Assembly: GCF_024256425.1 (NCBI RefSeq)
Contig: NC_071110.1
Span: 2,663,451-2,727,450, forward strand
Origin: Clarias gariepinus
Taxonomy: Eukaryota
Direction of reading: 5' to 3'
DNA length: 64,000 bases
Part shown: positions 6,215-64,000 of the stretch, piece by piece
Layout of the letters: each line of letters starts with the position of its first letter
Position numbering within the stretch: the stretch's first letter is position 1
Made by a program: the position numbers and the translations under genes
The notes under the pieces: model-generated
What the model saw: only the letters and a program-made list of their open reading frames with translations
What the model was told of the DNA's origin: nothing
Database searches by the model: none

Positions 6215-6740
6215 CGTTTATTTTAAGTCACATAACCTTAGACTTGAGATTTTACCTAAACAGAACCCGGCGTACAGAGGTTGAGTGAATGTGGTGTGGA
6301 CTCTGTGGAGGAGAGTCAGCCCTATGTCAGAGACGTTGTAAAAGGACAGAGTTCCTGCACTGTGATCCACATACACTCCTATTCTGGAGGACGCTGGACC
6401 TCGGAGCTCAGTCTTACTTTTGTTGTGGTGGAAACAGCCATGTGAAGGAAAACACTCCAGACTCCAGGAATGACTATTGCGTCCAAAAAGGTTGTTTTCC
6501 CGTCCTTTCCTGATGATCTCTTTATATGAGACTGATATGGCCACTAACCTACCATTCCACTCCACCTCCCAGTAACAGCGTCCACACACACTCTCTTTAC
6601 ACAACACCTGAGCCCAGGAGTCAAATCTCTCTGGATGATCTGAGTATTGCTGTCTTGTCTTACTGAGTGTCACTGATCTGTTCTTCTCAGACAGAATGAG
6701 ATGACCGTATGCTGTGTTGGGATCCAGAGTCAAAAATCTA
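6215..6740 (-). CDS. finTRIM copy B terminal B30.2 (PRY/SPRY) exon, including stop.
   Basis: ORF 6218..6766(-) 182 aa with hallmark 'LDPNTAYGHLILSEKNRSV...VCGRCYWEVEW...SWSLEC...GVYVDHSAGTLSFY'. Confidence 0.8.
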
Positions 6741-9700
6741 AAATCTAAAACAATAAAAATGTCCACAAGTTAGATATTAATGTGATGTGGTAGCTCGGTG
6801 CTGTTGGTCTACTAATTGGAAAGTTTGGGTTTAAATCACGGCACCAAATGCTCTTAGCTCTCAATTGCTCAGTTGTATTAATGAGATAAATGTAATTCTC
6901 AATTTTAGAATTTATAATAAATGTGTGAGACATGTGCATCTGTTCCTGTCCTAATTATTCAACTCTACATAAAATATTTTACATATTAAATATAATTCAT
7001 TAGATGTTTACACAGTGTGTAAAACACAGTCATTGTTACACTTACATTGCCTAAAACCCTCTCTGCTTTCCATTTGTGGAGGTAATATCTGAACTGCTGC
7101 AGCTAGGAAATAAAATGGAGAAAAAAATATGACATGGAATTTTATGGACATTTTTCATTTCTGTTGTTGTTGTCTGATAAATTTATTTTAATTTAATTAA
7201 CAAGGCTAATGCTAATATTATGTGACTTTATCCATTAGATAAATTTTATGTCTCTCTTTACTGTGATGTTTGCTTGTTTACCTTGTGGACGGATTTTGTT
7301 GAATTCCTCCTCACAGATTTCCTCGACTCGTTTTTTCAGATCTGAGAGAGATTTCCTCACTCCATCAAATGAGAGATGTTGATTGACAGTGAAGCTGGGT
7401 GCGTCCTCACATCCAGGAGAAACACAGAGAGACGGGAAACTCTACAGAGAGGAAACACATCATAGAGAAGGAGAAAAGTGTAGGAGAGGAACGAATGAAT
7501 CTCAGACTGAATCAGACCAAAGACACACTTGTGATCTCAGACAGGAACATTTATTGTTGCTGTAATGAGCTTTTAGGAGGAAACTTTGTGAGGAACAGCG
7601 CCCTCTGTAGATCAGACAGTGAGTGTTACCTGGAGGAAGTGGACGTCATTGTGTGTTTGTGAAAGCTGCTCCAGCTCAGTGACTCTCCTCTTAAGATCAG
7701 CAATCTCCTGCTCCAGTTGCTTCAGGAGTCGTTCAGCTCGACTCAGTTCAGCCTTCTCCTGAGCTCTAATTAACTCCGTCACCTCCGAGCGCTTTTTCTC
7801 CATAAGGCTGATCAGCTCAGTAAAGATCATTTCACTTTTCTCTACTGCTGCCTGTGAATGCATCTGTTAGGACACACACCAAAAAAAATTGAGCTTTGTT
7901 TAAATCTCAAGTCTTTCTTGTACAGTCCCCCCATAATGTCCATTGTGTGTGTGTGTGTGTGTGACCCTAGTGCAGCTTTTGTTATTATTGATCATAGTAT
8001 TATTTTCATAGATTAGAAAATATGATAAAAGTCAAGGAAATGGAGCTCACCTGGCTTAGAGGCTATTTGACTGATCGTTATTTATATATTTAAAAGGTAA
8101 CTATTCTACAGTGAAGTTTGGTGTTCCCCAGGGATTGGGTTTTAGGCCCACTCTTATTGACGTATAAAGCACCAAATGGTCTTGCGCCAAAGAACCTGCT
8201 AGTAAAGGATGCAGGCTGCTTGTCAGTTCCGCATATTACAAAAACTATAGCAGGGGGGTGGAGCTTTTTCTTACAAAGCCCTAAAGTTAAAGAATAGTTT
8301 AAGTCTAGACTAAAAACCTATTTATTAAGCCAAGATTTTTTTTTTTTTTTTGTGAATAGATTTGCCTTACGTAAAGAAGCAGATCTGGGGGACTCTAGAG
8401 TATTTTGGTGAACTGGTATGTTTGGATGCTGCCTTCACCACTTTCATTGATCATTTGGTTTGTTAATGGAGTGACAGGTTGCTTTTCTTCCCAGGGAGTC
8501 CTCATGTCTGTGTTAATTTCTGGCTGTCCCGTTTAGTTATGCTGCCATAGTTCAAATTCAAATTTAAATTTTATTTGTCACATACACAGTCATACACAGT
8601 ACGAAATGTAGTGAAATGTAAACATAAACATGTAGTGTAGATGTGAAGGTAGATGTGCGTGGAATTGTCCATAGTGTCCATGGATGTAAAAAGATTGATT
8701 GATTGATTGATTGATTGATTAATTGTTTGTGAAAAGATTGTGTTAGTTCTGCATAGTGGTGTGGTTGAAAGACCGTATCGCCTGCGGGAAGAAGCTCCTC
8801 CTCAGTCTCTCTGTGTTGGCCTTCAGGGAGCGGAATCACTTCCCAGACCGCAACAGAGTGAACAGTCCATTGTTGGGGTGGCTGAGGTCCTTCACGATCT
8901 TCCTGGCCTTGGTCCAGCACCGCTTGGTGTAGATTGAGTGCAGGTCAGAGAGCTCGGTGCGGATGATGCGCTCAGCTGATCGCACCACCCTCTGTAGAGC
9001 TTGTCTGTCCTGTATGGTGCTGTTCCCGAACCAGGTCGTGATGTTTCCCGTCAGGATTCTCTGTATGGTGCAGGAGTGGAAATTCCTGAGCACCTTGGAG
9101 GGCAGTCTAAAGTCTCTCAAGCGTCTGAGGTGGTACAGATGCTGCCGGGCCTTTTTTACCATGGTGTTGATGTGACAGGACCATGCCAGGTCCTGCCTGA
9201 TGTGAACACTGAGGTATCTGAAGCTGTCCACTCTCTCCACTGGGCTCCTGTTGATGACGGGGGCTCACCTGCTTTGTACTGAAGTCTTGCTGACGTTCAG
9301 GAGGAGATTGTTTTTCTGGGACCAGTTCTCCAGATTTCCAACCTCCTCCAGGTAGGCCGTCTCATCGTTGTTCGTGATCAGGCCCACCACAACAGTGTCG
9401 TCAGCAAACTTAATGACGGTGGTGGAGTTGGTAGTGGCCACGCAGTCATAGGTGTACAGAGAGTACAGCAGGGGGCTCAGAACACAACCCTGGGGGGCTC
9501 CAGTGCTGAGAGTGAGGGAGGCTGAGACATGTCTGCCCATCCTTACTGCCTGCGGTTTGCCAATCAGAAAATTGGAGATCCACTGACACATTGATGATCT
9601 GAGTCCCAGGTGCTGCAGCTTGCTAGCTACCTCTAGTGTTTTGTGACCTCTTGGATGAGTCGTCGCTGCACTCTTGGGGTGATTTTGCTTGTCCAGCCAC

Positions 9701-12038
9701 TCCTGGGAATGAGTCTCACTGTGGTTTCCTGCAGTCTGAAGGCTTTAGAAATGGCTTCATAACATTTTCTAGACTGATAGATCTAAATTATCTTCCTTTT
9801 CATTTGTTTTTGAATTTCTTTTTATCTCTGCATGATGTCTAGCTTTTAAAGATCTTTTGGTCTACTTCACTTTGTCAGGCAGGTCCTATTTAAGTGATTT
9901 TTTGGATTGGGAACAGGTGTGGCAGTAATCAGGCCTGAGTGTGGCTAGAGAAATTAACTCGTATGATAAACCAGAGCTTTGTTTTTTTTTACGGGGGGAG
10001 GGGGGGGGGGGGGCACTTTTTCACACCACTATACAGTACATTATGTGACTTTGACCATATCTAAATATTATCATTCTTTCTCTTCTTTTCCCTTTCTCTC
10101 TCTCCCCCTTTGAGCGACACATGCCGCTCCTGAGCAGCCTGTGACCAGACCCCCTGTGCCCTCCAGACCTGTCAGACTCATCCTGGTGCCCTGCTTGTGG
10201 TTGGAGATTTGGTCACATGGAGGCCCTGTGTGTGATGACTGGGGACGGTTCCATTTTACCATAAAGACGGCCCTGACCTCGGCTGATGCAGACAGCTGAT
10301 CTCTGAGGATTTGTAACTGCAGTCACTTAATAGTCCAGGACTGGAAATCCCTACAGTCTACATGAGCCTCCAATAGGAAAGTGGACTTTATATTGACTTA
10401 AAGAAATCATCCATTATATTGAGCTGGCAGCCTCCTAACACACAGTATGATGCAGATCAAACCCTGCCATCTGTTATCACCCAAATGAGGATGGGTTCTA
10501 TGTTTGAGTCTGATTCCTCTCAATGTTTCTTCCCATTTGCCATCTTGTTGAGTTTTTCCTCGTCATCATCACTCTTGGCTTGTCTATCACGGATGATCTG
10601 AGTCATTATGGTTTATACATATTTTCTCAAATTTCATAAACCTTTTTTCCTTTTGATTCTTTAAAGCTTCTTTGCGACAATGAAGATTGATAAAAACACT
10701 GTACAAAAGAATTAATTGAATTGAATTTGTGTTTGCACAAGGACAAGCATGCATGGGTGCCAGTATCTCTCTGTAATCTCTCTGCTCTCCCCTCACCTTA
10801 ATAGTGTCCACAGTCTGTTTTAGCTCTTGAACCTTCTTCTGCTTCTCCTTGATTCTCTGCTGGGATTTCCCCTGCTCTCCCTTCAGTTCATCCTGAGACC
10901 AAATAAAATAGACTTCATAATTTCCGTATCAAAAAAGCATCAAGGTTTTATTTGCATGAACTTTGGAGAAAATAATCTACCTAAAAAAAGACAAATTCCA
11001 TCTTGAAATAACAAAACTGCGAGTAGGGTTTAAGTCATACTGGGACTTGTGTGCAACATTCTGGTGACTGCAGGCATAAAACCATTTAACATTTACAAAA
11101 GACTTCAAACACAGTAGGGTGATGAGACCCTTAGCTGCCTTATAACATTTGAATGTTGCAAGCGATTTAAAGAAGGCTGAGGTAACTTGGAGTCCACTGG
11201 AGTCGTTCAGTGGAATGCGTGATTCCTAAAACTTAAAAAGATGGATAATCTTGTCACCAACTTGTGGAAGACACACATCTGTCTGTGGGAACTGTGCACA
11301 CAATCATTCACAAACACTACTTGAACATTACAGGAATCCTGCTGGGAGTTATTGCCACATCCCTGTACAGTCCTGACCTCGCTCCAAGTTTGACTTAAGT
11401 GAGTCAAATTCTATACTTTCAGGTTATTCAGGTCATTTATCTTGCCTTCTTGCTCTATGATTCTAACCAATCACAGACAAGAACTAATCATCTTAACCTC
11501 ACTTGGGCTTGGTAACAGATAAAGCGTTTTTATATATCTATGGCTTTTTTTTCACTGACCCGAATATAGACTGTGTGGTCCAAAATCCTATCATCATCAT
11601 CATCTTATTTTGTGCCACTTGTCTATACTGTGAATACAAGACCATTGAATTTAACAACATTATGTACAGTATAGTGCAGTGATTGTTTTAAGTGATGCTG
11701 ATAAGACTATTGACTTCCAAATGAGCTATGGAATATATGTTGTATAAGAAAGTCTAATTAACAGGAAGTTTTAATTGAAATAATAATGTAAACATCAACA
11801 CCTTATCACTATTACACAGCTTTAACACTGCAACAGCACTGTGCTCTGTTGTTCTGACTACATCCCAGGATTATATCCCAGTATTTCAAGGTAGAAAGTT
11901 TTCTCAGTGCACTGACACGTCTAATTTAACTGACTGGTTTAACACATCCTTACCAGCAGGCCTTTTAGTAGAAAAAAATTATGTTAAAGTGAATGACAAG
12001 CAAAAAAATTTTTTTATTTTCATCTTAACGAAAACTAC

Positions 12039-12095
<57 letters not shown>

Positions 12096-12701
12096 AGATT
12101 CAGTTCTCACCTGCTTTTTATTTCTTTCTGCTTTAGTTGAACCTGTTTCATGACCTTTATGGTCATCCATCATACACAAATAACAGATGAAGCTTTGGTC
12201 AGTACGACAGTAGATCTCGATTGGTCTATTGTGCTGAGAGCAGATCTTCTCTTGAAGCTCTGCACAGGCTTCCACTAACTTGTGCTTCTTAAAGGCAGGA
12301 GACTGATAATGAGGTTGAAGATGATCTTCACAATAGGAGGCCTGACACACCATACAGGAATTAACAGCTTTGCGTTTTCTCCCGATGCAGAAATCACACT
12401 CCACATCTCCAGGTCCAGCGTTACAGTGAGGAGCAGATGCAGCTTGGAGTTCAGTGTTATTTTGTTTCTCCATCATTTCAGCCAGCATGTTGTTCCTGCG
12501 TAGAACAGGCCTTGGAGCGAAAGTCTCTCTACACTGAGGACAGCTGTAGACTCTCTTTACATCCTCCTGATCCCAGAAGCGATTAATACACACCTTACAG
12601 TAATTGTGGCCACAGGGAGTTGTCACGGGATCCTTCAAAGGGTCCAGACACACTGCACAGCTGAACTGATCCTGATCTACTGAAATACTGGCCTCTGCCA
12701 T
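6215..12701 (-). CDS. finTRIM-like TRIM gene (copy B), full gene span: RING, B-box, coiled-coil, B30.2. It has at least 5 coding exons.
   Basis: N-terminal exon encodes RING 'CAVCLDPLKDPVTTPCGHNYCKVCI...SCPQCR' plus a B-box. A 96-bp exon and a 234-bp exon encode coiled-coil. The terminal exon is B30.2 'CGRCYWEVEW...LDPNTAYGHLILSEKNRS'. GT/AG sites were located by hand. Confidence 0.8.
7282..7395 (-). CDS. finTRIM copy B small exon ('FDGVRKSLSDLKKRVEEICEEEFNKIRPQ').
   Basis: Open frame with donor 'AAG|gtaaac'. Conserved in copy A (3340-3400) and copy C (63880-63935). The 5' boundary is uncertain. A further conserved micro-exon candidate lies at about 7085-7120. Confidence 0.45.
7630..7863 (-). 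CDS. finTRIM copy B 234-bp coiled-coil exon
   Basis: ORF 7612..7863(-) encodes 'AAVEKSEMIFTELISLMEKKRSEVTELIRAQEKAELSRAERLLKQLEQEIADLKRRVTELEQL'. Acceptor 'aacag|', donor 'CAG|gtaaca'. Confidence 0.7.
8080..8340 (+). mobile_element. Non-LTR retrotransposon 3' fragment (L2/Rex-like tail, 'LDYCN...KTYF' family), interrupted. It continues at about 9990-10300.
   Basis: Near-identical to 52990-54000, where ORF 52913..53425 encodes '...LDYCNALLSG...LTRTRIYEHITPIL...KSRLKTYFF'. Confidence 0.5.
8560..9600 (-). mobile_element. LINE reverse-transcriptase fragment
   Basis: ORF 9265..9591(-) shows 'GAPQGCVLSPLLYSLYT...KFADDTVVVG' (RT motifs). ORF 8836..9240(-) is RT thumb/C-terminal. Confidence 0.7.
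10797..10892 (-). CDS. finTRIM copy B 96-bp coiled-coil exon
   Basis: Encodes 'SQDELKGEQGKSQQRIKEKQKKVQELKQTVDTIK' between AG and GT. 96 bp is the length typical of finTRIM exon 2. Confidence 0.65.
11210..11410 (+). mobile_element. mariner-like transposase fragment, paralogous to 3600-3790.
   Basis: '...YSPDLAPS' motif. It sits in the corresponding intron of the duplicated TRIM copy. Confidence 0.4.
12111..12701 (-). CDS. finTRIM copy B exon 1 (ATG at 12701; RING plus B-box). Donor CAG|gtgaga.
   Basis: ORF 11979..12719(-). The true ATG is 'atggcagaggcc'. The donor is immediately followed by a (TA)n tract. Confidence 0.75.
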
Positions 12702-12797
12702 TTTCGTACACTCACACACACTCGCTCAAAAAGTAAACATTCGAGTTTCGTTTTTCTGTAAAATAACTTCCTGGTTCTGTCTGTGGTGTAGGGTGAC

Positions 12798-51600: not shown

Positions 51601-52989
51601 ATTTAAAAAAGAATTAATGATATAATTATTTAATTGTAATTATGTTGCCATTTTCCAAACAGGTTGTATGATTAAAGATTGTAATGATATTAAATGATTC
51701 CGTGTGTCCCTGACACACACACACACATCCACATATGGAGCGATATCTAGGACAATATTCAAAAGGCTTAATTTGCAATTGCGTTTGTATATGTGGAAGC
51801 ACAAAGTGTGTCATACTTTAAATGCAATTGCAAACTTTGCATTACCGTTTGCTGTTTCGCCTTTGTGAACGCACACTGATTGCCAAATTTTAAATGAAAA
51901 AGAAAAGTCCATTTGCATTTGTATTTCCCATGTCTTACAAGTCATGAACCTGTCATATTTAAATAGCTAAATCAATGACCAATTCACTTTCTCTGCGTCG
52001 CGCGTCAAGCCGGCCAAAATTCAAACGCAATCGCTAATCTATTTGCAATTGCATTTCCAACACGTTACACGGAAACCAGCGTCAGGGGTGGGTCTTTACT
52101 TTGGGGAGGGATTGTGTGGGGAGTGACGTCACTCGCAGTCGCCGACCACGTTACTTTTACTTTTATACTTTAAGTAGTTTTGAAACAAGTACTTTTACAC
52201 TTTTACTTGAGTAAAAAGCTTGAGTTGATACTTCAACTTCTAAAGAACACTTTTTAAACCCTAGTATCTATACTTCTACCAAAGTAATGAATGTGAATAC
52301 TTTTGACATCACTGGTTACTAGCGTCACCACCTCTGCTAGCCTTACTGACTACGGGAATCACTACACTGAGTTAGGGAGGAAAATCACAACTCAGCTTTA
52401 TTATACATGTGATACCGGTTCCAAGTTAACACAGGTTGGTCTAAAGTAGTAAACCCGCTGATGCAAAATGTCTGTGATACGCTTCTCTCGTTTCTTCCTC
52501 TCTCTCTCCTGCAGAATACTTCCGCCTCAACCAAAGGTGGCTGCGATAGGGATAGGCCTCCTTGTGGTGATGTTGGGTAATGCTTTGCAGACTCATATCT
52601 TCCAGCCATTACAACGTAACTGCAACAGTTCCGCTGCTGAGTATTGATGTAAAGACGACACCGGGCGGAGAGTTGAAGAGGGAATATTCCCCGCGGCCGC
52701 AAGCCACAGAAGTAATTTGCCAATCACCATAGCCATAGCCAAAAGGAATCCAGTTAGTGGCGATTTCCAAACCGGTGTTAGTCCAACCAAGTTCGTGCGA
52801 TGTTGCGTACAGTCACAAGATAAAAATAAACTAAAATAAAAAATCTAAAATCTAAATCCTTCCAAGTAGCAGCAACGGCTGCTAATAGCGCCAGCATTTG
52901 CCCCGGAAGTGAATGGATGTCCCGAGTGCCAAAAAACCTCCCAAAAAAAAACAACCCCACCCCCCTTGTCCCACTTGGTTGGACTATTG

Positions 52990-54000
52990 TAATGCCTTAC
53001 TGTCTGGTTGTTCAACTAGATGCATAAACAAGCTTCAGGTAATCCAGTATGCAGCAGCGAGAGTTCTCACTAGAACCAGAATATACGAGCACATCACCCC
53101 TATCTTATCTTCACTTTATTGGCTCCCCGTGAAATTTCGCATTGACTTTAAAATACTACTCTTGACATATAAAGCATTAAATGGTCTCGCGACGCAGTAT
53201 CTGAGTGAACTGCTGGTGTCTTATGATCCGCCACGCCTACTTCGATCAAAGGATGCAGGCTGCTTGTCAGTACCGTGTATTATGAAAACTACAGCAGGGG
53301 GCAGAGCTTTTTCTTACAAAGCCCCAAAGTTATGGAATAGTCTTGCAAATAATGTTCGGGACTCAGCAGTCTCAATGTTTAAGTCCAGGCTAAAAACCTA
53401 TTTTTTTAATCAAGCATTCTTATAAATAGATTTGTCTTGGGTAAAGGAGCAGATCTAGGGGACTCATGGACGTAGAGTATTATGGTGAACTGGTATGTTT
53501 AGGTGCTGTCTTCCCTATTCTCATTGATCACTTAGGTTTGTTGACGGTGAGGTGATTGTTTGCTTTACATATCAGGGAACCCCCATGCCTGTGTTTCCTT
53601 CTGGCTCTCCCCTTTTAGTTATGCTGTTATAGTAAGTCCTGCAGGAGTCTCTTCTTGCACTCTACACTAAATATTTATTCACATTATACATCATGTGACT
53701 GCGACCATACCTAACTGTTATCTCTCTCTTCTGCTCTCCCCTCTTCTGTTCTCTCTCCTCCTATCGCCCCCTCTCTCTTCTTCCCTCTCTCTGTCGAGCT
53801 ACCGTGTCGTTCCTGAGCTGCCAGTGATCCAGACTCCCTCTGCCCTCCGGACCTGTCTGACCCATCCTGGTGCCCCGCTTCTGGTTGGAGATCTCTTCGC
53901 ATGGATGCCCCGTGTGTCTTTTTGGAATGCGTCTGGTGTCTGGGGATGGTTTTACTTTACCATAAAGACAGTTCTGGCCTCAACTGGTGTTGACAGCTGT
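52990..54000 (+). mobile_element. Non-LTR retrotransposon 3' fragment, same family as 8080-8340 plus 9990-10300.
   Basis: ORF 52913..53425(+) has 'LDYCNALLSG...KSRLKTYFF'. The downstream block 53690-54000 is homologous to 10040-10300. Confidence 0.55.
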
Positions 54001-54779: not shown

Positions 54780-56800
54780 CTACGCAACAAGATATCCCGA
54801 AGCGCTCCAACTGCGAAATCCACCTCTAAAAATATCATGCATGAACTGGTACTGCTCTTCAGCTGTATGGGAATACCAAAGAAGCTCCTCACAGACCAAG
54901 GTACACCTTTTGTGTCTAAATTAATGAAAGATCTCTGTCTGCTACTACAGGTAAAGTGACTCTGCATGTCAGTTTTATCACCCTCAGACTGACGGCCTAA
55001 TGGAGCGCTTCAACCAAACCCTGAAGAGAATGCTACGAAAAGTAGCTGACAACAAAGGTCAGAACTGGTATCAGCTGCTGCCCTACGTACTCTTCGCAGT
55101 ACGGGAGACCCCCCAAACCTCCACGGGGTTTACTCCGTTCAAACTCCTATTTGGAAGGAGAGCCTGAGGATTACTGGTTGTAGAAAAAGAGACATGGGAG
55201 GAACAACCTTCCCCGTTCAGGTCAGTCATAGAATACATTCAAAATATGCAAGAGAAAATTCAGTGTGTTACCCATAGTGAGACGGCATATGGAGAAGGCA
55301 CAGGCGGAGCAGAAGAATTCTTACGACCGTCCAACACAACCCCGCGAGTTCCGACCTGGTGACCGGTTGCTCTTCTTGGTTCACAGTGCCAACTGTAAGT
55401 TCCTCGCACGCTGGCAGGGGCCCTTCACCATAACGGAAAGGGGAGGGCGAAGTGAACTATAGACTCCAACAACCAGGTAAACGAAAGACGTCTGAACTAT
55501 ATCATGTTAATTTGCTTAAAAAAATGGATAGAACTGACACCACAGACACAGCTATGGAGGCTGTATCTCTACTAGAACAGGCATGGGATCTAGCACAATG
55601 CGGAGAGGATCTGAGCCCATCCCAGGTCCAAACAATGAAGGACATAATCGACCAACACCAAGATGTATTCTTCTTAGAACCTGGGCTCACGCATCTCATA
55701 CAGCACGATATTAAAACACCACCGGGCAGCATCATCCCCCAGCGCCCATACCGGGTACCAGAAGCACGATGACGCGCTATCGAGGCAGAGGTGGGCAAAA
55801 TGTTAAAAGCCGGTATAATCAAGGAGTCCATAAGCCCGTGGTCCAGACCAATCATAGTGGTACTAAAACCTGACAGTAGCCTACGTCTTTGTAATGATTT
55901 CCGCTGACTGAATCAGGTGTCAGAGATCGGCTAGGAAGAGCCCGCTTCATATCCACCCTGGACTTAACAAAAGGATACTGGCAGTTAGCCCTCACTCCCA
56001 AGAAAAAACTGCTTTCAGCACAGAGCGCGGTCACTGGCAGTATCGAGTTCTTCCTTTTGGATTACATAGTGCGGCAGCTCCATTCCAAAGGCTTATGGAC
56101 ATTGTATTACGCAACCACCGGTCGTACGCCGCTGCTTACTTAGATGATCTTATCATCCATTTAAATAGCTGAGACGACCATATTTTCCACCTTCAACAGG
56201 TGCTGGCGCTACTGAGGAAAGCCAGTTTCACAGTCAACCCAGAAAAATGCCACCTCGGTCTGACGGAAGCACCGTATCTAGGGTACCGCATTGGCTGAGG
56301 TTGGTTGAAACTCAGGAAAAAAAGGTAAAAGCTATTTATAATTACCCACAACCACAAATAAAAAAACCAGGTGTGTGCGTTTATAGGTCTTGCAGGCTAC
56401 TATCAGCATTTTGTGCCTAACTTCTCTTCCCTTTCAACTCTTCCTTCTGATCTGCTGCGAAAGGGACAACCAGAAAAAATAAAATGGACAGATGTAACCA
56501 AACAGGCATTCAATCAGCTAAAAACCCTCCTAACTAGCTCTCCATTTCTTCGCAATCCGGATTTCGAAAAACAAGTCATCTTCCACACAGACGCCCCCGA
56601 GACTGGACTCGGAGCAGTGCTATCCCAGTTGTTTGAGCACCCGGTCTTATACGTGAGTAGAAAACTCAATAATGCAAAGCATAAATATGCAGCAGTAGAG
56701 CGGGAGGCTATAGTGATTAAATGGGCAGTGGATGAATTACGGTATTATTTAACAGGAAGACTTTACTGATTACAGATCACGCACCCCTAAAAAGGACACG
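54780..56800 (+). mobile_element. Degenerate Ty3/gypsy-like pol. An integrase-core piece (54780-55450) precedes RT/RNaseH pieces (55600-56770). Frameshifts and stops are present.
   Basis: 'YHPQTDGLMERFNQTLKRML...' is an integrase motif recovered across frames. ORF 55452..55772 shows 'LIQHDIKTPPGSIIPQRPYRVP' (RT N-terminus). ORF 56371..56769 shows 'FIGLAGYYQHFVPNFS...' (RT/RNaseH connection). Confidence 0.6.
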
Positions 56801-57561
56801 AACCCACGCATCAAACGCTGGTTTTTATCCTTAAAAAAAAAAAAAAAGTTTGCTTGTCATGTATCAAGCAAATGATTCATTTTACAATGACTTTTTTCTT
56901 TTTGGAAGTTATCTAAAATCTCGTGGGTTGGGTGTGACAGGAAAGTAATTGACAATTTTGTAAAATGACAATCTTAATAATCGTTCAGTGGGCTCACAAA
57001 TGTTGTACTTCATTTTAATTTAGGATTTTTTTTTTTGCTATTATATGAAAAAAAAGTAGTTCAGAACTATACTGTATAACGAGCAGAGGTATATACAGTC
57101 AGCAGATTAATAACACTGTCATAATTAATGATAGAATTTTAAACATCAAAAACACTTTACAAATGTTTTAAAACATTTTAAACATTGAAAATGTTGCAAA
57201 CTGTCTTAATTTACAAATTTTAATTGTAAGTGACAGGTTACAGACTGTTCCTCCAGATGTTCCTGAACTCTCTAACTGCCCTCTGGATCGAGGGTAAGTA
57301 AATGTAATGGAGACTGAATAAATAGATCTCACAACAAGACACTACTCTATTTAACCCTGCCCTTAATCTTTTTATTTGTTGAATATGGACACTGCCCCCA
57401 GCAATAATAGTTCTTCTATTAAGGCCTCTTCTACTGTATGTAACATGTAATGTGCAACCTCAACATTTTCCAAACCATGGTCACATCAGACCCTTGATGG
57501 TAATCCAAAGTTGCACCCCTTCTCTGAACAAAGATAGAACAGTTAATATTATTATTAAACA

Positions 57562-57605
<44 letters not shown>

Positions 57606-57639
57606 ATATATAATATTATAATATTATTATTATAAAAAC

Positions 57640-57749
57640 GGAAAAAACTAAATAACAAATTCAAAACCAAATTAACAAATCTGAAAACAAAATAACAAAA
57701 CCCAAAACAAATCAACAAAACCCAAAACAAAATAACAAGTTTTTTTTTT

Positions 57750-57780
<31 letters not shown>

Positions 57781-57960
57781 GGGGTTGTTATTTGTTTTGG
57801 GTTTTGATAGTTTGTTTTTGAATTAGTTATTTTGTTTTCTGTTTTGTTAATTTGGTTTTAAATTTGCTATTTTGTTTTGGGTTTTATTGTTTTGTTTTTG
57901 GTATTGTTATTTCGTTTTTTCATTTATTTTGTTTTCAGTTTTGTTAATTTGTTTTGCACT
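57640..57960. repeat. Long imperfect palindrome (A/C-rich arm | T19 G29 | G/T-rich arm), flanked by (TAA)n/(ATT)n.
   Basis: Left arm 'aacaaaacccaaaacaaaataacaag'. Right arm 'ttgttatttgttttgggttttg...'. Its reverse complement matches the left arm over about 100 bp. Confidence 0.8.
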
Positions 57961-58739
57961 TCACTGTAAGGGTTAACTCCTAGAGGGCGCCAAACGCCCA
58001 CTAATTATGTTTATGTTTGTAGCTTAGTTTGAGTTGGACTTCGTGTCCCAGACTGCACCACGGTAAAGTGAGGGGAGTAATCACCTAACCCGAGGAGAGT
58101 AATTAAGTGAATTAATATAAATAGCCTGACTGAAGTTCAGCCAGGCATCCAGCATTTGTTGTGGTAGTTATTGTTACTGTTAGTATGACTAGAGTAAAGA
58201 ATTCTGTTGGGCTCAAACTCTAGCATTTTGTTTCAGTTTTGTTTTGCTTTGTCATTAAATAAAAATAACATCTAAAACGTCACTCTCTGCCTCTGCATTT
58301 ATGCCATGCCGACACAAGACCCGCAAACGTGACAGAATGCTAGACCTCTACAGTGGCATAGCAGAGGTGTCTCCCCTAGATGTTTTTTGGGGGGAAGCAG
58401 TGACTAGGTTGCCGGAGCGAGCGGACTTTCGGAGTGACTTCGAGGAGTACAGAAAGCAAAGTAAGCGAGGGGTGCTGCAGAGCTGGGAAAGCTGCAGGCT
58501 CACCATTCGGTGGACACCACTTAAGAGTGACGCAGCTCGGGGTGACAGACTTCCCCGCATTCACCAGGAGGTATGGACCAAGAAGGTCAGGTATGGCGGT
58601 GGCGAGAGGGAAGAGGAACCTCAATGGTTCACAGAGCGGCAATGGAAAGAGGAAGGAACGAGTAATTTTTACAGGTTTGGGGCAGAGGTGAATGAGGAGC
58701 GCATTCAAACCTGCTCGTTCAGCTCTACGAGAGCCAGGC

Positions 58740-59040
58740 AGCAGGCTTTGAGCCTCTTCCTGTGCCTCAGCTGGACAGCGAGGACGACACGCTTCTTCCT
58801 CTGCCGCCGGGCTTTGAGGACACTGTGCCAGCTCCTCAACTCGACATCGAGGACGTTGCGCTCCTTCCTCCGCCTCCCGGCTTCCAGGATATCTGGCCAG
58901 CTCCTCGACTCGACAGCGAGGACGTCCCGCTTCCTCCTCCTCCGTCTCAGCTCGATACAGAGGACGACGCGCTTCCTCCTCCTCCGTCTCACTCAACACA
59001 GGGGACAATGCGCTTCCTCCTCCTTGGCATTAGCTTAATA
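58740..59040. repeat. About 69-bp x roughly 4 tandem repeat, proline-rich in the + frame ('PQLDSEDD..LPPPPGF').
   Basis: ORFs 58301..59038(+), 58762..59109(+) and 58376..59008(-) all traverse it. Confidence 0.75.
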
Positions 59041-60429
59041 GTGAGGACGTCTCGTTTCCACCTCCGCAGCCTCAGCGTGCCAGCTAACATTTGTACCCAG
59101 CCCCCCTAAAAATTATCCATAAACTTCACACAAATTGGTGATCGCTCATCGTCCCCTTTAAATTTGATATGAAAGTGTCGGCAGACTTCGGCTTCGCCCC
59201 GTCTTTCAGTGCGGTCTTCAATTCGCCATCACAGAGGGAGGATTAAGGCAAGGTGTGTGTTTTTCAGTGCAGTCCTTTTTAATAAATACAGTTTACAAAA
59301 TGTCATGAGGAATTAATCAGTTAAATCTTCGCTGTGTTCACCCTCATCACACCAGCTGTTTCTTCTAGTGAAAATAAAGCCCTAAATACATACTCTATGA
59401 ACTTATAGTCTACTTTATAAAACATTCATGCTGTTGCTGTTTTAATTGGAAAACCCAACTGTCTATATAAAACATTACACAGTGCATATGGCATAAACTA
59501 ACATAGAGTTATGCACATAAATGATTAAAAATAGTGACAGACAGCATACAGTGCACTCGCTTTACCTGCATAGCAGTGTGATTTACAGAGAGAGAAAAAT
59601 CCTGTTTTTGTAATAAATATTGTATTGTATTAAATAATGTCCCAAATCGTAAAATACATTTATTAGCCTTAGAGTAGGGTTTGTGTCACTTTGATTTAAA
59701 AAAACTTACTTTTTTAATGAATAGAAACAAAAAAAGAATGATATTAAAAAGATGCTTTTTAACAATGTTTGTCTATATTAATGAATTTGAATAAAATTAG
59801 CTATGAATAACCGAGTAGCTATGAAATTTTGAGGGGTTGAAAAGAGAACCTACTGTCTTATTAATGTAGCTAAAACACTAATTTAAACTAGATCAAAGTT
59901 TTAATATTTATATTTAACTGTAGATGTAAGGTTTTTAAAAGGTTTGTAAAAGTCACATAAAAAAGATGTTCCATTCTTACCTGCTGCTCATTTGGAGACC
60001 TACTCCCATGTGACTTGAAAAACCTTCCATCTCCAGTTCTACAGTTCAGTTCTCTGAAAGCGCAGCCTCTCAGACACATTGACACTGTTTCCAACATTGA
60101 TTGAAGTCATTGCATAAGAAACTATTTTTCACATTTTTTATGTGTGCCAGTTTCTAACAAAAAGCAGCAGCATTGTCAAAGAATTAACAGATAAATGTTT
60201 GACATTATTGGCTCCCACACAGTTTATTCCATTGCCCAGCTGTATAGTGGTGTTGTTTATATTGCTAATCAATGTAAGTTATATGCTGGTTACATTTTTC
60301 TGATGGTACCTGTACATAGAAAAAGGTTTATACGGTAAACAGCGTGTGTGATCAAGAAGATTCATTTGAGTACTGATTCTGTGTTAAACATCTATGGGGG
60401 CTGAGCCCCCTTAACTGAAAATCCTAGAA

Positions 60430-62372: not shown

Positions 62373-62890
62373 CATTTAATATGAGTCACATAACCTCACA
62401 GTTGAGTTATTTCTGAATACCTTGAACCCAGCGTACAGAGGCTGAGTGAATGTGGTTTGGACTGTGTGGAGGAGACTCATCGTGTCAGAGATGCTGTAGA
62501 AGGACAGAGTTCCTGCACTATGATCCACATACACTCCTATTCTGGAGGAGGCTTGACCTTTGATCTGTGTGTAAACATCATTGTGCCAAAAAGAGACAGA
62601 GGCAGGATAACACACCAGACTCCAGGACTGACTGTTGAATCCAAACCTACAGTCATTACCCTTTCCTTTCCTGCTGATCTCTTTATATGAGAGTGATATG
62701 GACACATCACCGCTCCACTCCACCTCCCAGTAACAGTGTCCACACACACTCTCCTTAGACAACACCTGATCCCAGTAGTCGAATCTCTCTGGATGATCAG
62801 AGTACTGCTGTGTCTCACCATATGTTACTGATCTGTTCTCCTCAGACAGAATAAGGGTAGGATGTGCTGTGTTGTGATCCAGAGTCAGTG
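62373..62890 (-). CDS. finTRIM-like B30.2 terminal exon of a third TRIM copy (copy C). The gene continues 5' beyond the window end. Conserved small exons lie at about 63400-63450 and 63880-63935.
   Basis: ORF 62376..62765(-) has 'VCGHCYWEVEWSGDVSISLSYKEI...GVYVDHSAGTLSFYSISD'. Sequence 63900-64000 is near-identical to 7340-7450 of copy B. Confidence 0.7.
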
Positions 62891-64000
62891 ATCTAAAATC
62901 TAAAACAGTAAAATGGTCACAGGTTACATGTTAATCAAAGGTTTATAGTTAGTGCATGAGACACCGTCTGTGTTCCTGTCCTCCTGCCCAAAATGAAATA
63001 TTTTAAATAAAAAATATCAGACTTTTATGTACAAATATATCATCCCACCATCTCTAGGGATTGAGGGCGGCATTCATCCAGACTCTTTTCCGTTCTGACA
63101 CCTAGGTGATGGAACAAACTTCCTCTAGATGTCCCACAGCAGAGACTTTGACTTATTTTAAACTACGACTACGAAGACGTATCTGTTTCTCCAGTACTTA
63201 GACTAATTCCCCCCAAAAACCCTCTCCCAGTTGTGTTGGACTAATGGCACTTAGTTATTAACCTAGTTAACCCAGTGTAAGTATGTATCCAATGATGTAA
63301 ACTTTAAAGCACTTTTTTAAGTCGCTCTGGATAAGCTCCTGCCAAATGCCTAAATGTAAATGTAAATGTGTGTCTATACTTACATTGCAAAAAATTCTGT
63401 CTGCTTGTCAGCTGTGAAGGTTGTATCTGAAATAACGCTACAGCTGTGGAGATAAAATAAAGACAGCGTCCAGCCTTATTACAGATAGACACATCAATTA
63501 AATGCCACCTTGGTGGTAAACATTCTCAAACTCTTAATACAGGTATTAACTAAAATTTTCTGAATTGTTTCTAAGATGATTTTGCAAACTTGTGATTAAC
63601 TTACATTTACATAATTTGTCTGGTAAATTTATCTTGATAGTGTACAAGGCCAATGCTAATACTTTGTGATTTTATTCATTAATTCAGTCGTCTGCCTATA
63701 ACAGCATATTAGATCCACTTTAGAGCTATGCGGGTAAAATAAAATAAAAACATTTTTTTTTAGAAAGTAGTTTTAAAACTGCTTTCTTCTTATTTCTGTT
63801 AGATGAATTTTATGGCTCTCATTAATGTGATGCATTAAAAATGTTTGCCTGTTTACCTTGAGGACTGATTTGCTCAACTTGTGTTTTCATCTTTGAGAGA
63901 GATTCCCTCATTCCATCAAATGTGTGATGTAGATTAACAGTGTACAGTGAGTCCTCACATCCAGGAGAAACACAGAGAGACGGGAAACTCTACAGAGAGG

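Follow-up and report, generated by a model that had tools for sequence, protein, structure and literature searches.

Foldback transposons, represented by Drosophila FB, Tetris and Galileo, consist of inverted arms of tandem subrepeats, unequal in length, around a short middle domain, with an outer flanking domain and TSDs of 8–10 bp (PMC4079207). Their arms extend over hundreds to thousands of bp. Tc1/mariner MITEs and the IR/DR ends of fish Tc1-like elements offer a second point of comparison, being palindromic as a whole, with CAGTG...CACTG-like termini, CACTG|TA on the right, and a TA duplication on either side. Template-switch quasi-palindromes, or inverted duplications, which form at repetitive DNA by intra-molecular template switching (fold-back priming or snap-back synthesis), are composed of inverted arms of unique sequence separated by a short, asymmetric spacer, carry no TSD and apparently belong to a single locus. 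Inverted arms around a hard-to-call centre are also produced by technical long-read foldback artefacts, and inverted duplicates are known to lower nanopore base-calling accuracy (PMC7229812).

The locus considered here was analyzed within the whole stretch of 64,000 nucleotides of Clarias gariepinus DNA, hereafter the window. It reads from an A/C-rich arm through a T run and a G run into a second, G/T-rich arm reverse-complementary to the first, and is composed of the following features:

57544–57638, no strand: compound (AAT)n to (ATT)n microsatellite, itself a small palindrome, abutting the outer end of the left arm
57643–57738, plus strand: left arm, A/C-rich, 4.8 copies of the 20-bp unit AAAACAAAATAACAAAACCC (TRF period 20, 80% matches)
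57739–57784, no strand: spacer of 46 nt, corresponding to the hairpin loop, with exact run lengths of one G (57739), T20 (57740–57759) and G25 (57760–57784)
57785–57878, plus strand: inner right arm, units in reverse complement, each mirroring its counterpart in the left arm (86.3% over 95 nt by blastn)
57879–57956, plus strand: outer right arm, about four further units of the same array, resembling the inner right-arm units
57957–57968, plus strand: GCACTTCACTG followed by TA, with a weak resemblance to a Tc1-like terminus that was noticed post hoc by comparison with GCACTTTTTCACACCACTATA

A preliminary description of this DNA had already reported this layout, with arms matching over about 100 bp, a unit duplicated inside the right arm, and a palindromic (AAT)n/(ATT)n microsatellite directly upstream, all of which our analysis reproduced; its T19–G29 junction, however, has to be corrected to T20 and G25. 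The microsatellite resolves into two TRF tracts of period 3 (57562–57623, 20.3 copies; 57597–57633, 12 copies), which form the inverted pairs 57584–57608/57609–57633 (84%) and 57587–57607/57613–57633 (95%), and weak homology of the left arm reaches outward to about 57634. TRF reports the whole right arm (57785–57955) as 8.8 reverse-complement, T/G-rich copies of period 20, and the two arms are unequal in length, with 96 nt on the left and 172 nt on the right. Within the right arm, blastn aligns 57891–57955 to 57791–57858 at 82%, so that this arm has a higher-order periodicity of its own of 80–100 bp; its outer part is also complementary to left-arm units (57664–57695/57924–57955, 94%).

On the T/G-rich strand, the repeat unit consists of a variable trinucleotide, often GGG, followed by TTTTGTTATTTTG and TTTT, and its T and G tracts vary among the units outside the centre from T4 to T6 and from G2 to G3. 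The left arm contains two exact copies of the 18-mer AACAAAACCCAAAACAAA, and the opposite strand of the right arm contains four with 1–2 mismatches. The only further match in the window is to a poly-A stretch, and the nine matches found with up to three mismatches in the 64-kb window compare with 0.33 expected. A single degenerate, T/G-rich copy of a unit pair (TTTTGTTTCAGTTTTGTT), 89% identical to 57928–57945, was observed at 58226–58270, which is 270 bp downstream of the array. The minisatellite may have grown out of this copy, or the similarity may be due to chance in T/G-rich DNA.

The complementarity of the two arms is far stronger than their composition would produce. A blastn comparison against the window pairs 57644–57738 with 57785–57878 at 86% over 95 nt (E = 1.7e-25), and a longer ungapped register pairs 57634–57741 with 57821–57928 at 77% over 108 nt. 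In the inner alignment, 82 of 95 positions are identical, and the differences amount to 12 substitutions (5 transitions and 7 transversions) and one indel. These substitutions represent real divergence rather than homopolymer noise and, together with the indel, indicate that the inverted repeat is old and did not come from a chimeric foldback read. As a null model, each arm was shuffled 1000 times separately with its own composition kept, because A/C-rich and T/G-rich blocks pair partly through composition alone. When the left arm was locally aligned to the reverse-complemented right arm, the score was 54; the shuffled arms (n = 1000) averaged 16 and reached at most 28–31. The order of the units was compared as well: the four full inner units, aligned in mirror order, gave 68 matches out of 80, the best of the 24 possible permutations (mean 62), in a test that is weak, since it can reach 1 in 24 at best. 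Mirror order thus gives modest support to a block copy or flip over two unrelated arrays of one satellite.

The centre of the structure is in phase with the repeat. From the spacer into the right arm the sequence runs G-T20-G25-TTGTTATTTG-TTTT-GGG, and the homology between the arms ends exactly at AACAA | TTGTT, abutting the spacer. When T20 is collapsed to T4 and G25 to G3, the spacer becomes GTTTTGGGTTGTTATTTG, which preserves the unit-consensus register and differs from it only in the length of the T run: G-T20-G25-TTGTTA collapses to G-TTTT-GGG-TTGTTA, and the collapsed centre, G-TTTT-GGG-TTTTGTTA, coincides exactly in register with the reverse-complement unit, G-TTTT-GGG-TTTTGTTATTTT. Because of this register, the two homopolymers look like expanded tracts of the repeat unit at the tip of a hairpin, and the spacer itself is best understood as an incomplete repeat unit, probably unpaired at the tip, in which both the T tract and the G tract have lengthened. 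The junction of T20 and G25, with no base between them, is the only one of its kind in the window, and G25 is by far its longest run of G or C.

A second T-run/G-run junction lies elsewhere in the window, in a Tc1-like transposon end on the minus strand (9500–10035; TIR TAGTGGTGTGAAAAAGTG at 10014–10031). Within its inverted repeat (9984–10013), what is natively about G6 reads G6AG14 after T9. G runs thus do lengthen from short seeds, whether in the genome itself or only in its assembly. An independent Tachysurus assembly contains runs of G9–G10 and C13, together with a T6G10 junction.

The window is eukaryotic DNA of about 40% GC with dozens of microsatellites, and the palindrome occupies an intergenic position in a transposon-rich TRIM/B30.2 cluster. 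The TRIM cluster is of fish type and lies entirely on the minus strand (2014–2613, 6218–6766, 11979–12719 and 62376–62909); it comprises one RING/B-box first exon and at least three PRY/SPRY (B30.2) exons, and its best relatives are catfish TRIM16-like or 'stonustoxin-like' proteins. For the B30.2 exon at 62376–62909, the best protein matches come only from catfishes (Clarias, Tachysurus, Silurus, Pangasianodon, Ameiurus and Ictalurus), at 72–76% identity, and an exon-like stretch reaches up to 92% nucleotide identity with Tachysurus fulvidraco, as befits DNA of a siluriform-like fish. To the left of the palindrome lies a dead, rearranged Gypsy-type pol (54960–56847), in which the integrase C-terminal segment stands directly upstream of the RT/RNase H segment (Pfam RT_RNaseH_2, E = 6e-29); the fragment is interrupted by in-frame stops and breaks off at an A15 run. 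To the right follows a GC-rich block (58301–59109) with tandem repeats of 69 bp (x2.6) and 42 bp (x2.6) at 58765–59024. This block is open in several frames on both strands and encodes a proline/acidic repeat (PQLDSEDD...PPPPGF), and its ORFs, including 58301–59038, have neither a Pfam domain nor, in a search of 5.8 billion proteins, any homologue.

Two other ORFs in the window were recorded. A 220-aa ORF on the minus strand (44626–45288) contains a serine-rich repeat, encoded by a 48-bp unit present in 4.2 copies at 98% identity (44914–45116). A 170-aa ORF (52913–53425) resembles the C-terminal part of a LINE (L2/RTE-like) reverse-transcriptase ORF, and DNA related to it, at 76–78%, is present in Tachysurus and Pangasianodon loci (L005 and L006).

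Searches for further copies of the repeat covered the window, related catfish loci and unrelated sequence collections. A degenerate two-unit pattern matched the window four times, in every case within the arms, and had no match in viral contigs. Five catfish loci from Tachysurus, Pangasianodon and Hemibagrus, obtained through TRIM/B30.2 homologues and totalling 106 kb from four assemblies, contained neither unit copies nor any match to 56.8–59.3 kb. No other copy was detected either in the 64-kb window or in these 106 kb. In JGI metagenome contigs, which include some fish DNA, the pattern matched four contigs, all of them unrelated A/C-rich low-complexity stretches with neither inverted arms nor a T/G core. 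One contig, Ga0209628_10006189 (L004, 6250–6840), carries an A/C-rich minisatellite with a unit of about 23–24 bp (AAAACAACAAAAATAACAAAACC) that the pattern picked up through its composition; it lacks both an inverted partner and a T/G core, and seems unrelated to the window locus.

The account that we favour, and consider just about probable, is that the locus is a single-copy, non-coding quasi-palindrome that arose by local rearrangement of a 20-bp T/G-rich minisatellite, followed by slippage in its centre. An array of about nine or more units, still seen as the right arm, would have come first. The left arm would then have formed from the proximal five or so units of this array, either as an inverted copy of them or through a small internal inversion; the likely cause is a template switch or fold-back while the DNA was being replicated or a break was being repaired. 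This event would have left behind a short unpaired tip, part of one repeat unit (G-TTTT-GGG), whose T4 and G3 tracts were presumably lengthened later by polymerase slippage to T20 and G25, while point substitutions would have lowered the identity of the arms to 86%.

We infer the switching event from the mirror order of the units, the exact AACAA|TTGTT boundary, the lack of a TSD and the strand-switching microsatellites nearby; slippage of the loop tracts is suggested by the position of the centre in unit register, and the proposed order of events likewise goes beyond the anatomy. An origin by replication slippage or template switching, already put forward in the preliminary description, thus fits best, given the register of the centre and the nearby microsatellites that also switch strand. 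The least secure step is the slippage from G3 to G25, which starts below the usual slippage threshold. In addition, the 80–100-bp periodicity of the right arm (82%) means that three cases are not cleanly separable: an inverted duplication, a partial inversion of one array, and a pair of arrays from the same family.

Compared with template-switch quasi-palindromes, the locus shares the inverted arms, the short asymmetric spacer, the missing TSD, an occurrence that appears single in the window and the 106 kb of catfish DNA, and a low-complexity setting beside strand-switching microsatellites, and it presents adjacent, colinear mirror arms around a short spacer of local sequence. It differs in that its arms are 20-bp minisatellite arrays instead of unique sequence, that its spacer has grown to a 46-nt T20G25 block, and that the event itself can only be deduced. 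A further small rearrangement of this inverted-repeat type affects the tandem repeats at 41967–42443, where microsatellites switch strand from (AC)n to (GT)n to (CA)n; in the first pair, bases outside the repeat (AAAATTTC/GAAATTTG) are also complementary, across a 29-nt spacer. Taken by its anatomy, the palindrome is a repeat rearrangement of an ordinary kind, with a T20G25 centre of unusual length.

An origin in transposition seems unlikely to us, although several features would suit it. The locus would then be the remnant of a non-autonomous DNA transposon, either foldback-type or a Tc1/mariner-derived MITE with TIRs of 20-bp subrepeats, whose left terminus was eroded or overwritten by the (AAT)n microsatellite and whose middle domain is T20G25. 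Its architecture matches that of Tetris, Galileo and FB in the tandem-subrepeat inverted arms, the unequal arm lengths and the short middle (PMC4079207), and the two opposite 20-bp arrays, with 4.8 and 8.8 copies, have the form of long TIRs with tandem subrepeats. The total length of about 330 bp is MITE-like, the whole is palindromic as in Tc1/mariner MITEs, a unit-like motif occurs once more at 58226–58243, and the right end, GCACTTCACTG plus TA (CACTG|TA), resembles the Tc1-like end GCACTTTTTCACACCACTATA at 10013–10033, which likewise has a T run followed by an expanded G run. However, the arms measure about 100–170 bp instead of hundreds to thousands, no transposase relative lies nearby, and the sequence searched for further copies (64 kb of the same genome, 106 kb of catfish DNA and the metagenome contigs) yielded none. 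An exhaustive comparison of boundary pairs (57500–57660 x 57900–58010) detected no direct repeat of 7 bp or longer for any pair, and the two 6-mer candidates lack a terminal inverted repeat. Nor do the two ends share a unique outer domain: the left arm meets (ATT)n and the right arm ends in GCACTTCACTG. A left Tc1/mariner terminus (TA-CAGTGAAGTG...) is absent anywhere to the left, as is a second CAGTGAAGTG terminus, and the similarity on the right, seen post hoc, extends over 13 nt and requires an 8-nt gap. The internal order also differs, the Tc1 repeat running T run, AACAA, G run and the present locus AACAAG, T run, G run. The proposal of a foldback element or MITE in the preliminary description is therefore not supported, as the locus shows neither a TSD of at least 7 bp nor a common terminal sequence, and neither the window nor the 106 kb of catfish DNA holds a second copy; GCACTTCACTG plus TA is possibly the only trace of a transposon end, or may be due to chance. 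We are more doubtful still that the locus is something new, whether as a member of a lineage-specific, undescribed catfish family of foldback or MITE-like elements with 20-bp subrepeats and a T(n)G(n) core, or as a distinct five- to eight-fold expansion of loop homopolymers in the tip of a quasi-palindrome.

With similar reserve we regard the reading in which the arms are real and the centre is a sequencing or assembly artefact, that is, T and G lengths overcalled at the hairpin tip or a false join at the homopolymers. It would account for a T20G25 junction that is unique in the window and a G run that far exceeds every other run of G or C, and a collapsed T4G3 centre identical to an ordinary repeat unit is what would be expected if only the lengths were wrong. 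The degradation of nanopore base calling at inverted duplicates (PMC7229812) points in the same direction, and a systematic technical bias could also explain the second over-long G run, in a Tc1 repeat that canonically has about six G. Technical palindromes resemble the locus in having inverted arms around a hard-to-call centre (PMC7229812), but their arms are near-identical, whereas here 12 substitutions in 95 nt and unequal lengths separate the two arms, which argues against a palindromic chimeric read or a missed-adapter artefact; nor are there the gaps nearby that would often accompany a chimeric read, the window containing no N. The window also spans many long microsatellites, among them (GT)38, a (TCA)n tract of 246 bp and the 98%-identical 48-bp array, and its exons keep long open frames, all of which is typical of a polished long-read assembly. 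The long G and C runs and the T6G10 junction of the Tachysurus assembly likewise speak against an artefact. Of the earlier suggestion of an assembly artefact, the chimeric foldback join thus falls away, and doubt about the run lengths in the centre persists at the level just given. A functional role for the hairpin, as a hairpin-RNA or miRNA-like precursor or as a regulatory or origin-like DNA structure downstream of a TRIM gene, appears to us highly improbable. The predicted fold is strong and the palindrome lies about 4.4 kb downstream of the stop codon of the B30.2 exon, but no Rfam family matches the palindrome even at E <= 1, the low-complexity arms diverge freely by pair-breaking substitutions, conservation at related catfish loci and evidence of transcription are both missing, and a similar strand-switching repeat nearby has no obvious role.

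Other candidate explanations were tried and rejected. The poly-G artefact of two-colour Illumina sequencing arises at the 3' ends of reads and would lack real sequence on both sides; here, real sequence flanks the run on both sides in a gap-free assembly that spans long repeats. A retroposon tail, with T20 as a minus-strand poly-A, or a pair of tail-to-tail retroposons, was discarded on the grounds that the flanks of the arms share no similarity and that C25 before A20 is unprecedented. In L1-style twin priming, the poly-A would be expected at one end and not between the arms, and an LTR/PBS reading of 57960–58300 found no second LTR copy in the window.

Under the origin favoured here, by local rearrangement of the minisatellite, the locus has no detectable function, and its consequences are structural. 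Rfam returned no match at gathering thresholds in the whole window and three chance-level matches (E = 0.29–0.85) in 56800–59300, none of them on the palindrome, and no database protein has a word in common with the peptide obtained by translating the arm's T/G-rich strand. As single-stranded DNA, 57625–57960 has a predicted folding energy of -61 kcal/mol (z = -7.9; none of 100 shuffles folded as well), and the minimum-free-energy model contains a stem of about 100 nt and a 42-nt unpaired T/G loop, so that an imperfect hairpin of about 100 bp is predicted for the single strand. The preliminary description had suggested a hairpin or cruciform: the hairpin is supported by this model for single-stranded DNA, while extrusion of a cruciform from duplex DNA is made less likely by the 46-nt spacer and the 14% mismatch between the arms. 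These same two features are of the kind that would let such a structure persist, given the instability of palindromes. The G-quadruplex competence that it ascribed to the G run also holds by sequence rule, the uninterrupted G25 (57760–57784) containing at least four G3 tracts, and the G25/C25 run could accordingly form G4 or i-motif structures. An inverted repeat centred on T20G25 is likely to be an obstacle to replication, a site of length instability and a hard-to-sequence spot.

The biological importance of the locus is small: it is one more unstable, hairpin-capable stretch of low-complexity DNA in a transposon-rich, intergenic part of a fish TRIM cluster. Its practical value is that of a caution flag, as T20G25 within an inverted repeat of about 100 bp is prone to sequencing and assembly error, length polymorphism and replication stalling, and variants or breakpoints called there deserve raw-read support before they are believed. 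If expansion of the loop held true across many similar loci, it would be a small example of secondary structure shaping the growth of homopolymers.
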